From a virus (Duplodnaviria > Heunggongvirae > Uroviricota > Caudoviricetes): DNA of 12,596 nt. The notes under the pieces were generated by a model. The model was not told the origin of the DNA, searched no databases, and saw nothing but the letters and a program-made list of their open reading frames with translations. Position numbers and translations under genes: made by a program. The stretch lies in the IMG/VR virus record IMGVR_UViG_2695420714_000002, one strand, 5' to 3'. Positions 8,589-10,313 of the stretch are shown here, one piece after another. Positions within the stretch are counted from its first letter, which is position 1, and every line of letters starts with the position of its first letter.

Positions 8589-8802
8589 GTTTCGCCTCGC
8601 CTGAATGATTCTGTAACTCATATTTGCCCAACAATTCGTCTGCTTCCTGAATAGCTTCTGGTACGCCATTGAGCAGTGACATAACCGCGCCAATCATTAA
8701 CTTGTCTCTGTTGCTGGGGCTGGCCCCTTCAAGCCAGAACCCTAAAACAGTCTGAACCTGTTCGATGCGACATTGCGCTTCAATGAGCTGGATGTTGGTC
8801 AT
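8581..8802 (-). CDS. Hypothetical protein (73 aa)
   Basis: ATG at 8802 with SD GGAGAG about 6 nt upstream; ATGA-type 4-nt overlap with the upstream gene. Confidence 0.55.
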   Translation of the reverse strand: MTNIQLIEAQCRIEQVQTVLGFWLEGASPSNRDKLMIGAVMSLLNGVPEAIQEADELLGKYELQNHSGEAKHE

Positions 8803-9062
8803 TTCGCACTCTCCGCATCGATTAAACTGATATCTATCAGAGAGGTAACTTTTTGTAGCCAGCTAGTGATTACTGTCGCCTGTTCCCCTCCCACCGATGG
8901 AAGAATCTCATTCATCACATGAACCAGACCTGTGCGCGCTCTGGTAAGCCGTTCAGTCGTGCGATCTGCAAGAGTGAATGTGTCTGGATATGGCTCTTCA
9001 CGGCTCAGCAATGATTCAATTTCCAGCTCACACGGATGACGATAAATTAAGTTGATATTCAT
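8799..9062 (-). CDS. Hypothetical protein (87 aa)
   Basis: ATG at 9062 with a G-rich SD (GGGGG) about 7 nt upstream; ATGA overlap with the upstream gene stop. Confidence 0.55.
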   Translation of the reverse strand: MNINLIYRHPCELEIESLLSREEPYPDTFTLADRTTERLTRARTGLVHVMNEILPSVGGEQATVITSWLQKVTSLIDISLIDAESAK

Positions 9063-9253
9063 TTTTCACCCCCAAGAATTACCAGCTCTGCACGAGCATC
9101 GTTAACCAAAGATGAGCACGCTTTAATCGCATCCACGACATCAGCAGCGTCCATTTCTTCAGCCGAAAGACTGACAGCAACCAGGACAGCCGCTGCTTGC
9201 TCGATTAATTGAAGTGCGGACGTAAGTCGAGGGGCATTAATTGAGTTATTCAT
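9059..9253 (-). CDS. Hypothetical protein (about 64 aa; start re-called at the internal ATG, the track ORF extends to 9310)
   Basis: Internal Met ([10 protein letters not shown]...) at 9253 with AGGGG about 7 nt upstream and an 8-nt ATGAATAA-type overlap with the stop of the upstream 72-aa gene. The longer track start would overlap that gene by about 65 nt. Confidence 0.5.
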   Translation of the reverse strand: MNNSINAPRLTSALQLIEQAAAVLVAVSLSAEEMDAADVVDAIKACSSLVNDARAELVILGGEK

Positions 9254-9464
9254 TGGTTGCCCCTGTTTTTCCAGGCATTTCGCCACCTTCCAGCAGGAAA
9301 TGAACGTCACGAACGGCGAGATCCAATATCGCGAGTAACGCCTTCAGTTTTTCGTCTCGTGAGGGAGAGTTGCTCACCAGAATGTCATTAATCACTTCTG
9401 TCAGTGTGATGATCTGGCTTGTGCGTTCGAGGGGATCCATATGCACATCGTAGGTTTTAATCAT
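9246..9464 (-). CDS. Hypothetical protein (72 aa; [13 protein letters not shown]...), annotated here as an independent gene rather than the C-terminus of the 355-aa track ORF
   Basis: ATG at 9464 preceded by SD GGAGG with a 6-nt spacer. The start overlaps the stop of the 64-aa gene as ATGATTAA. The translated sequence is helical and protein-like, unlike the 355-aa frame immediately upstream of it. Confidence 0.6.
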   Translation of the reverse strand: MIKTYDVHMDPLERTSQIITLTEVINDILVSNSPSRDEKLKALLAILDLAVRDVHFLLEGGEMPGKTGATNE

Positions 9465-10313
9465 GTGCCACCTCCATGCGGATACGACCAGCAAAAAAGC
9501 AGACGTGATCGCGCACCAGAGAACGGCGAGCATCGCGTTCAGACTCGGCAGCAATATGATGAATTTTGGCGGTAATTGTCGGGCAATCGCGGCGAACTGC
9601 GGCGATAATCCAGATAAATTGCGGTTTTTGGGTAGGGGTAGTAGCCAGCATGTGGCAGCCTCCTTGTACTGGGAATTCTTCCCACCACCGGAGCTGCGAA
9701 ACTCGCTGGTGGTGGACTGAACAGAGTTCGCAGTACCGGCGTACAAGGAAACCGGCCAGCCTTTCGGCTGCCCTGTCCAGCCCACCATAATTTTGCAAGC
9801 GACGCGGATTATAACCACATCACTGAAAAAAGTGTGAGTCTGGCTAACGGCACAAAAAAAGACGCTCGGCGCGTCATGTGTCGCCTCGTACATTTCCGGG
9901 CTGCGAAACCCGGCACCCGTTTTATGAGGTGCCTTATAACCATAAACCGTGTTGCCGCATAACGACAAGCTCTTTTTTATGGACTCCGAAAACTCACTAT
10001 TGGAAGCACCAGATGCACAATACATCGCGCTCATTTCGTTAACGTCGCGCGTGTGGACGAAGGTTTTTGTGGAGCCACTACGCGAGCAGAGAAAGCCATC
10101 TACGACCAGAAATTCTCTGGCGCAGCCGCTGACCCTCTCAACGCTAACACCATCGACCGTAATTTCTGACATAGTTAAGGCATCCGCTCCTACCACCAGC
10201 AAATGATAAACCTTGCTTGCATCTGCTGTATTAATGCCTGATTTTGCTGTCATATTGCTGGATTTTTGCGACATACCAGCCAGTGAAAATATCTTCTTCT
10301 GGGCGGTTAGCAT
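9246..10313 (-). CDS. ORF with a strong start at 10313 (355 aa in the track); probably composite: an N-terminal hypothetical protein of about 150 aa that has lost its stop, or reads through, fused in frame across the leader to the 72-aa gene
   Basis: ATG at 10313 with SD GGAGG about 7 nt upstream and an ATGCTAA-type overlap with the upstream gene stop, so a real gene starts here. The frame stays open through a hairpin-T7 element, a TATAAT, a structured leader and the 64-aa gene in another frame. Both alternative frames hit stop codons shortly after the T7 tract. Confidence 0.3.
9457..9651 (-). CDS. Hypothetical protein (64 aa; [22 protein letters not shown]...), first gene of the small-gene/primase operon
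   Basis: Internal ATG of the 113-aa track ORF 9457..9798, preceded by a perfect SD (AAGGAGG) with about a 7-nt spacer. Its stop TAA overlaps the next gene's ATG. It lies in a different frame from the 355-aa track ORF, whose translation here is compositionally odd (Trp/Pro-rich). By my base count the ATG is at 9650..9648, one nt off the frame implied by the track. Confidence 0.5.
   Translation of the reverse strand: MLATTPTQKPQFIWIIAAVRRDCPTITAKIHHIAAESERDARRSLVRDHVCFFAGRIRMEVAHD
9653..9747 (-). promoter_or_regulatory. Structured 5' leader: nested hairpins with pseudoknot potential that occlude the SD of the 64-aa gene
   Basis: Outer 8-bp stem CCTTGTAC (9661-9668) with GTACAAGG (9740-9747); the mRNA arm overlaps the AAGGAGG SD. 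Inner 10-bp GC-rich stem 9681-9690 with 9705-9714, with a 14-nt loop. Loop sequence CTGCGAA (9694-9700) is complementary to TTCGCAG (9726-9732). Confidence 0.4.
9853..9874 (-). terminator. Terminator-like GC hairpin followed by a T7 run on the minus strand (candidate attenuator or intrinsic terminator)
   Basis: Plus-strand A7 at 9853-9859 followed by GACGC-tcggc-GCGTC at 9860-9874; on the minus-strand RNA this is a hairpin followed by UUUUUUU. The stem is only 5 bp, so this is weak. A TATAAT on the minus strand (about 9812..9807) follows it. Confidence 0.3.

Follow-up and report, generated by a model that had tools for sequence, protein, structure and literature searches.

The DNA considered here (hereafter the window) is the 12,596-nt viral stretch IMGVR_UViG_2695420714_000002, which carries on its minus strand a 355-codon open reading frame (ORF) that begins at position 10313 and continues without a stop through a cluster of small RNA genes and two further coding sequences. 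By its phase, position and family matches, this long ORF appears to be the counterpart of the eta ('ash') gene of P4, and it is likely that its translation, rather than its protein, is what matters, as an eta-type read-through over the RNA immunity module of a phage satellite. Comparison of related loci shows that the continuity of the frame is conserved and that the peptide is not. Seen at the level of sequence, the locus combines an RNA module with internal complementarities, homology to eta and kil, coupling to the gene upstream, and signs of selection for an unbroken phase without constraint on the peptide.

A long frame in the phase of P4 eta

The long ORF is preceded by a Shine-Dalgarno (SD) sequence, GGAGG, 7 nt ahead of its ATG, and the stop codon of the upstream DUF4222 gene (TAA, 10309-10307) shares the heptamer ATGCTAA with that ATG. 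This start/stop coupling bears out an earlier note on this DNA, made from its letters alone, which held that a real translated frame, coupled to the gene upstream, begins at 10313. The DUF4222 gene itself closes the operon alpA-orf143-antA-DUF4222. Codons 1-127 of the long ORF lie upstream of the RNA genes, codons 128-221 run over the isrK RNA, a spacer, the C4 RNA and its target, codons ~221-285 cover a 64-amino acid (aa) kil gene in the +1 frame of the latter, and codons 284-355 are a 72-aa gene read in frame. The earlier note had described the same course, with the frame staying open across a hairpin and T7 run, a TATAAT hexamer, a structured leader and a 64-aa gene before merging with the 72-aa gene, and the sequence confirms it, including the placement of the 64-aa gene in another frame behind its own SD sequence (AAGGAGG, 9665-9659).

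The openness of this frame exceeds chance. Over positions 10313-9652 it contains no stop, as compared with 8 and 12 in the remaining two frames, and when the 282 codons ahead of the 72-aa gene are simulated with a first-order Markov model, a frame has a mean of 10.9 stops, with a probability of about 2-5e-5 that none occurs. Past the T run both of the other frames soon end, as had been claimed, one at 9846/9822 and the other at 9811.

Family searches place the long ORF with eta over the stretch that encodes the RNAs. Pfam PF10554 (Phage_ASH) matches aa 124-232, that is, isrK through the target, with 99.8 bits, and positions 31-149 of PHROG 6928, the P4 eta family, match aa 106-233 (99.1 bits), while positions 138-194 of this PHROG fall on the icd-like (kil) gene instead; P4 eta itself matches PHROG 6928 end to end with 295 bits. 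A tblastn search with the ASH stretch led to Lin's 1984 P4 record X02534, whose 'put. ash gene (aa 1-137)', overlapping the CI RNA, also matches the Phage_ASH family. In P4, the frame is already open upstream of the PLE -10, stays so across seqA, the T7 run, CI and the target, and passes in frame into kil. One ATG of this frame gives exactly 197 codons, which we take to be the size of the P4 eta gene. In one account, Kil of P4 is a truncated form of Eta, and eta is coupled to the upstream alpA homologue, can be translated only from the late promoter, and by its translation prevents termination (PMC10111431, the last three points citing Forti et al. 1999). The long ORF of the window starts upstream of the inferred internal promoter, is coupled to its preceding gene, and is stop-free through isrK and C4 in the P4 eta phase; kil, however, is not nested as its in-frame C-terminus but lies in frame +2 relative to it.

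Since the Phage_ASH, 'ash family' and PHROG 6928 models all cover the stretch encoding isrK and C4, their conservation mostly mirrors constraints on the RNAs. The family name 'ash' carries no information about protein function, and matches of the Phage_ASH type should not be taken as evidence for a regulator protein. In lambdoid and other prophages, among them Stx phages, phiP27, SfV, 933W-like phages and phiKO2, the isrK-C4 stretch also lies inside ORFs, which are called antirepressor, Rha or 'transcriptional regulator', and such prophage ORFs belong to PHROGs 995, 821 and 3960. The read-through-ORF arrangement may thus be general beyond satellites.

The frame is kept and the peptide is not

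For the comparison, 66 loci with Kil/Icd-like relatives were collected, one genome per species, and were picked blind to the frame under test; isrK and C4 were placed in them by Rfam or, in a hold-out set, by nhmmer. Between the start of isrK and the kil ATG, stops are absent from the eta frame in 44/45 loci of the main set and 25/26 of the hold-out set, together 69/71 loci that are not phylogenetically independent; both other frames carry at least one stop in every locus. The only two loci with a broken eta frame (phase change, 2 stops) are L036 of Phytobacter diazotrophicus and L063 of Serratia sp. L9, which may be decaying elements or assembly errors.

Two further features of these loci bear on selection for an open frame. 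The isrK-to-C4 distance falls into eight classes (101, 125, 128, 140, 143, 146, 176 and 185 nt), all of which are 2 mod 3, and the chance that eight classes would keep phase is about (1/3)^7 if the classes are independent. Upstream of isrK, six unrelated N-terminal sequences occur; in each the frame reaches back 201-453 nt without a stop as far as the preceding gene, and its first ATG lies at, or at most ~32 nt inside, the end of that gene in all locus types. The preceding genes vary, being alpA-like (with an ATGA overlap in P4-like loci), DUF4222, or a gene of 176 or 295 codons. Among the E. coli relatives examined the ORF measures 355, 355, 355, 355 and 395 aa, and in one further relative, L005 (NZ_CP162987), it measures 342 aa; there, a 1-nt deletion in the terminator loop (equivalent to window position 9867) and a 38-nt deletion (~9830-9793) add up to an in-frame net deletion of 39 nt.

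The variability by codon position shows no protein-type pattern along the ORF outside kil. It is flat in all of these segments, at 0.77/0.75/0.69 in the 75 nt before isrK, 0.43/0.33/0.31 in isrK, 0.66/0.81/0.86 in the spacer, 0.46/0.34/0.47 in C4 and 0.55/0.61/0.46 before the kil ATG. The kil gene, by comparison, has a codon-position entropy of 0.29/0.23/0.85, which is a coding signature. In the N-terminal 127 codons of the window, the ratio of nonsynonymous to synonymous changes (dN/dS) does not single out the ORF frame, with too few changes to decide; in frame 0, the first 49 codons give ~0.36 from 13 changes. Frame continuity without constraint on the peptide is the pattern to be expected if translation itself is the function.

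The same values bear on the idea that the ORF encodes a genuine multi-domain protein, an 'Ash' or Bro-network regulator whose function depends on its sequence and which merely overlaps the RNA genes. Such a protein could explain why PHROGs label related families as transcriptional regulators or repressors, why Phage_ASH is among the Pfam families of the Bro network (PMC10111431), why the full-length ORF is conserved in E. coli, and the somewhat low dN/dS of the first 49 codons. It fits poorly, however, with the flat codon-position variability outside kil, with an N-terminus of 127 aa that has only close relatives and no family match, and with codons 50-87 being the reverse complement of terS codons (see below). 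Moreover, compensatory changes in the RNAs rewrite the peptide between alleles, and the N-termini are unrelated between locus types. A genuine protein of this kind is accordingly improbable, and the earlier note was right to doubt that a true conventional 355-aa protein is made. That note had also reasoned that its own explanation would fall if homologues encoded a full-length protein with codon-level conservation and did not conserve the 64-aa frame. The long ORF is indeed conserved; the 64-aa frame, however, is conserved too (NF033153; third-position variability), and codon-level constraint on the long ORF is not seen.

The RNA immunity module

The region 9968-9457 (Table 1) is, at the level of sequence, a P4-type RNA immunity module. 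The predicted isrK fold begins with two hairpins at the 5' end and includes a terminator hairpin (GACGCGCCGAGCGTC, 9875-9861), which in the terminator scan is directly followed by the T run; a site complementary to C4 (GUACGAGG, 9891-9884) lies internally. This run, at 9860-9854 (U7 in the RNA), reaches one base beyond the end of the Rfam isrK match at 9855. The hairpin and T7 are thus the terminator end of an isrK/seqA-type RNA, with T7 as its U-tail.

The second RNA matches the C4 family. Among 32 C4 sequences from the collected loci, pairing is kept in 99.8% of cells, and compensatory double changes occur at 15 of the 27 pairs; none of 500 shuffles reached these values. What the earlier note called a structured leader is therefore a C4/CI-type antisense RNA. 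Loop 2 of C4 (UCCUUGUAC) has perfect 9-nt complementarity to the target GUACAAGGA at 9669-9661, which overlaps the kil SD sequence, and an 8-nt match, including one G-U pair, to the isrK site. The loop, the downstream target and the isrK site vary jointly among E. coli alleles (GTACAAGGA, TCTGAAGGA, TCGAATGGA, CAATCAAGGA and ACACAAAGGA), and 45 loci contain 23 distinct target strings at a fixed position. The pair of isrK and C4 is present, by Rfam, in 39/40 scanned loci encoding Kil relatives, and both families match phage P4 itself (L008 = X02534) at the positions of seqA and the CI RNA. The equivalence of seqA and CI with the isrK and C4 families has been stated by Barquist et al. (PMC3632133) and Hershko-Shalev et al. 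(PMC4825925).

The E. coli islands are mosaic over 9930-9660 when the window is compared with L002, L004, L005, L006 and L007. The flanks are nearly identical, and the 3' half of isrK, the spacer, C4 and the target differ by up to ~35%, with matched loop and target changes; at least 5 loop/target types occur in 8 E. coli loci. The alleles of the module look like exchangeable cassettes of immunity specificity, comparable to those of P1/P7 c4 and P4 CI.

An internal promoter equivalent to P4 PLE can be placed just upstream of isrK. All locus groups have a TA(T/C)(A/G)GT hexamer at -12 to -7 relative to the isrK start, in the geometry of the annotated P4 -10. The promoter-like TATAAT further downstream (9813-9808) was considered as a promoter for C4 and rejected: the 38-nt deletion of L005 removes it and leaves isrK, C4 and the long ORF in place, and the scanner found no -35 for it. 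The hexamer is probably dispensable. Just before the inferred -35, window positions 9997-9972 (GAGTTTTCGGAGTCCATAAAAAAGAG, translated 'EFSESIKK') are kept in all loci of the island type described below, and upstream of isrK L012-L014 also have repeats of the type 'EGFSD(I/V)TT', in sense orientation and similar to the terS pac region. Such sequences may represent an UP element, a protein-binding site or pac-like repeats.

Table 1. Features of the eta-like locus in the window, with the evidence for each
Feature	Position	Strand	Evidence
Eta-like ('ash family') read-through ORF, 355 codons	9246..10313	-	ORF listing, stop-free translation, Pfam, PHROG
SD GGAGG and ATG of the long ORF	10325-10321 and 10313-10311	-	Sequence; start context same in E. 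coli relatives
DUF4222 gene, 60 aa	10307..10489	-	Pfam PF13973; annotation of the 99.4% identical locus L001 by the Prokaryotic Genome Annotation Pipeline (PGAP); sequence
Relic of Lederbergvirus (P22/IME10-type) small-terminase gene, ~115 nt	10052..10170	+ (antisense to long ORF)	Megablast, translation, alignment
Inferred internal constitutive promoter, P4 PLE equivalent	9939..9968	-	-35 TTGTCG 9968-9963, 18-nt spacer, -10 TATGGT 9944-9939, start near 9932
isrK / P4 seqA-type RNA	9855..9932	-	Rfam RF01394, 69 bits (gathering score 50); terminator scan; fold
TATAAT hexamer	9808..9813	-	Sequence
C4 / P4 CI-type antisense immunity RNA	9705..9792	-	Rfam RF01695, 81 bits (gathering score 45)
C4 loop 2	9749-9741	-	Within C4
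seqC/a2b2-type target with kil SD AAGGAGG	9659..9669	-	Complementarity, covariation
kil / icd-like gene, 64 aa, P4 Kil homologue	9457..9651	-	NCBIfam NF033153, alignment with P4 Kil, codon entropy
72-aa gene	9246..9464	-	Own SD GGAGG; overlap with kil stop; last 72 codons of long ORF

The T7 run

The earlier note had seen in the T run, which it placed one base off at 9853-9859, the site where a shorter gene was frameshifted into a pseudogene, where slippage or phase variation occurs, or where the run length was misread in sequencing. An exact-match search of complete E. coli genomes found the T7 version in 130, which are all those with this allele, and the T6 and T8 versions in none; T7 is also present in 43/45 related loci of many genera and in P4. 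As T7 is the rule in complete genomes, the T7 of the window is its normal state, which speaks against all three causes. A frameshift pseudogene is at odds with the full-length frame kept in every E. coli relative examined and with the phase kept in 69/71 loci, on both sides of a run that is itself the tail of the isrK terminator.

What speaks for these causes, besides the early stops of the other two frames beyond the run, comes from protein clusters of Logan/ENA assemblies, in which T5, T6 and T8 versions, together with length variants of A runs at ~9975 and ~9922, truncate the ORF at 155-210 aa. These truncating variants (proteins P0001, P0002, P0003, P0010, P0012, P0019 and P0020) occur in none of the complete E. 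coli genomes. Homopolymer errors or rare mutants explain them best, probably the former; true slip-strand variants are also conceivable. A real small gene that ends before isrK was considered and dropped, as no relative ends there save for these homopolymer-length variants. Taken together, the T7 explanations are very improbable.

The kil gene and the gene that follows it

The 64-aa product scores 71.7 bits against NF033153 (Icd-like; cut-off 25) and is 39% identical to P4 Kil, which by homology assigns it to the Icd/Kil small cell-division inhibitors. In most loci, including P4, kil is in frame with the long ORF, and the distance from the C4 start to the kil ATG is 139, 142 or 145 nt. The window has 141 nt here, as do its E. 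coli relatives, L006 and a metagenome-assembled genome (MAG) of Symbiopectobacterium (L015). The sequence before the start is GGAGGCTGCCAC-ATG in this clade, as opposed to GGAGGCTGCCGCT-ATG or GGAGGCTGCCATC-ATG elsewhere, so that the SD-ATG spacer is 1 nt shorter, and as a result the long ORF reads kil in the +1 frame and ends at the stop of the following gene. Since the 72-aa gene overlaps the kil stop by ATGATTAA, it falls in the long-ORF frame. The effect of the 1-nt change would be that the induced read-through ORF no longer yields a polypeptide containing Kil.

The 72-aa gene has a ~50% identical homologue in L015. It was also considered as a homologue of P4 epsilon, which has the same position, and this was rejected for want of any detectable similarity. 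Kil loci of enterobacterial type also turned up in L018 (Vagococcus sp. WN89Y) and L047 (a Ferruginibacter MAG), two assemblies from unrelated phyla. The former also has isrK and C4; the latter is cut at a contig end, and neither RNA was detected there. Both loci are likely contamination.

How translation could gate the module

By analogy with P4, the module would be on in the resting island, the internal promoter producing an isrK/seqA-type RNA that ends at the hairpin and U7. Transcripts that read through this terminator would yield the C4/CI-type antisense RNA, and pairing of the C4 loop with the kil SD region and the isrK site would keep kil and the downstream replication genes off, in the manner of P4 and P1. 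Upon induction of the island by a helper phage, transcripts of the alpA operon would be made, and because the long ORF starts upstream of the internal promoter, it would be translatable only from these. Ribosomes on the long ORF would then cross isrK, the terminator, C4 and the target and, by analogy with P4 eta, would prevent the RNA structures and the termination. Induced transcription could thereby bypass the island's own immunity, both the isrK terminator and the C4-dependent termination. If ribosome passage is the function, then selection would act on the unbroken frame and not on the amino-acid sequence.

Several points weigh against this interpretation. Translation of the long ORF, the activity of the internal promoter and C4-dependent repression are all argued from analogy as far as the island is concerned, and the P4 eta mechanism is taken here from a secondary account (PMC10111431). 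The putative promoter is weak, with 8/12 consensus positions, and fell below the threshold of the consensus scanner, which did not report it. Because the loci are phylogenetically non-independent, fewer independent tests stand behind the figure of 69/71 than it suggests; the sounder evidence comes from the eight length classes and the six unrelated N-termini. Among the loci that lack such a constraint, 75% have a stop-free kil +1 frame, so that the continuation of the ORF across kil into the 72-aa gene may come for free and need not be a selected trait. Lastly, the window has no stop triplet, whatever the frame, in C4 or in the 53-nt C4-icd spacer, so that part of the openness of the long ORF costs nothing.

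This last point also speaks for an accidental ORF, open simply because structured, G+C-rich RNA genes and an antisense coding relic are poor in stops, and either untranslated or translated without consequence; the 'Ash family protein' would then be an artefact of translating RNA genes. Such an accident would agree with the missing protein-type periodicity, with Pfam and PHROG similarity confined to the RNA-coding part, with a terS relic that is read antisense in codon register, where frames are often open, and with three different PGAP annotations of the same DNA. It would not account, however, for eight spacer classes that all keep the phase, for stops in both other frames in every locus, for six unrelated upstream sequences that are all open to the stop of the preceding gene and have a start codon there, or for the low probability of a stop-free frame in the window. 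An accidental ORF is therefore unlikely, and translation-gated read-through is the interpretation that we retain.

Relation to known systems

The closest known arrangement is the P4 immunity region (seqA - cI - seqC, with nested eta and kil). The two share the order of elements and the Rfam families, a Kil homologue directly after the target, the T7 tail and the promoter geometry, and in both the long ORF starts upstream of the internal promoter, in the same phase and coupled to the preceding gene (by ATGA with orf88 in P4). They differ in that kil is the in-frame C-terminus of eta in P4, whereas in the window it is read in the +1 frame (141 vs 142 nt from C4 to the ATG) and the ORF ends with the next gene. 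Upstream of isrK there are ~23-43 codons in P4 and 127 in the window, the latter with a terS relic; the preceding gene is an alpA homologue in P4 and DUF4222 here; and the elements themselves are a P4-like satellite and an island of the phage-inducible chromosomal island (PICI) type, respectively. The locus is thus a variant of the known P4 eta/kil and seqA-CI-seqC arrangement that is out of the kil frame, fused to the next gene and furnished with a long N-terminus bearing terS/pac sequence.

Another relative is the immI operon of P1/P7 (c4 - icd - ant), where loops of a C4-family RNA likewise pair with the ribosome-binding site of a small Icd-like gene, the downstream genes are coupled, and allele-specific loop/target pairs constitute immunity specificities. 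In addition, the Rfam c4-a1b1 target family matches the isrK 5' region in relatives. Control in P1 has been described as translational, and P4 uses termination. In contrast to immI, no antirepressor follows icd in the window, and antA lies upstream.

A third comparison is offered by Gifsy-1 of Salmonella (IsrK - orf45 - anrP), which shares an isrK-family RNA, a leaky intrinsic terminator, a short ORF and a coupled next gene (PMC4825925), and whose IsrK was called a structural homologue of P4 seqA by its authors (PMC4825925). There, however, IsrK activates translation in trans, and neither a C4-kil arrangement nor a spanning ORF is described for the locus. CI and seqA homologues within the 'Bro-zone' genes of Gram-negative PICIs have already been noted (PMC10111431).

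The value of the present analysis lies mainly in explaining a recurrent annotation problem and in providing comparative evidence for a conserved frame rather than a conserved protein. That evidence suggests that the principle of P4 eta, in which read-through of an RNA immunity module is gated by the translation of an ORF rather than by the protein made, reaches PICI-type islands, and that the continuity of a frame can be selected without constraint on amino acids.

The N-terminal part and a terS relic

The N-terminal 127 aa of the long ORF gave no match in Pfam, PHROGs or NCBIfam, and among 5.8 billion proteins only close E. coli and Salmonella copies (at least 65% identity) and no distant homologues were found. 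Within the corresponding DNA, the small-terminase relic on the opposite strand is 85-92% identical to terS of P22, IME10 and others by megablast, and codons 50-87 of the long ORF are exact reverse complements of terS codons. In L003 PGAP labels the relic as a 'DNA-packaging protein' pseudogene. An 85-aa plus-strand ORF at 9949-10206 was examined as a possible TerS fragment and discarded for its frame, which differs from that of terS; the latter is interrupted.

The homology of the relic begins where P22 has its pac site (positions 4-25 of record AF527608). The pac-equivalent 22-mer at window positions 10059-10080 is GAAGGTTTTTGTGGAGCCACTA, and the corresponding 22-mers are GAAGGTTTTTCTGACGTCACAT in IME10 and GAAGATTTATCTGAAGTCGTTA at P22 pac. 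Relic alleles in L007 and L011 are nearer to the IME10 sequence, and L006 is without a relic. It is plausible that the relic mimics pac and so enables a P22-like helper to take up the island by headful packaging; if functional, it would mark P22-like phages as helpers of this island family.

It is conceivable, if rather doubtful, that a broader picture applies. The 'Ash/Eta' frame across isrK-C4 modules of satellites, and perhaps of lambdoid prophages, could be a pure ribosome track, a translation-gated override of immunity, with Phage_ASH and several PHROG 'regulators' as mere shadows of RNA genes. In the PICI clade of E. coli, the track would have been re-phased to skip the toxic Kil moiety and would carry a copy of the helper pac, serving both induction and headful packaging by a P22-like helper.

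Island context and annotation

The locus L001 in E. coli strain 214-4, a copy 99.4% identical to that of the window, adjoins yicC. Its gene order, from PGAP and Pfam, is integrase, hypothetical gene, HTH/AlpA-type regulator, 143-aa gene, antA, DUF4222, long ORF, several small genes, TOPRIM/DUF927 primase and late genes; Pfam matches in the island proteins include AntA, DUF4222 and Toprim/DUF927. The same layout is found in Gram-negative PICIs (PMC6092414, PMC10111431), elements of ~10-15 kb, integrated at a specific site, with the order int - alpA - regulatory/'Bro' zone - primase/replication - late zone, and that order is present here. By its gene content, the window appears to be part of a PICI-type phage satellite island. 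Of the complete E. coli genomes, 479/5426 (~9%) have a segment covering at least 80% of the 1.6-kb query.

Annotation of the locus has been inconsistent. In L001, L004 and L007 PGAP calls an 'ash family protein' of 355 aa; in L002, L005 and L006 it splits the same DNA into an 'ash' pseudogene and an 'Icd-like' gene; and in L003 it places a 303-aa 'ash' protein next to the opposite-strand pseudogene mentioned above. An eta-like frame overlapping RNA genes and kil resolves this puzzle, which affects hundreds of genomes, and the kil/icd-like gene should be annotated even where the long ORF masks it. A further naming problem lies just downstream, where the 87-aa product of window positions 8799-9062 (minus strand; L004 2139-2402) is called 'nicotinic acetylcholine receptor subunit beta' by PGAP in NZ_LR898874; for a small protein of such an island the name is plainly wrong.

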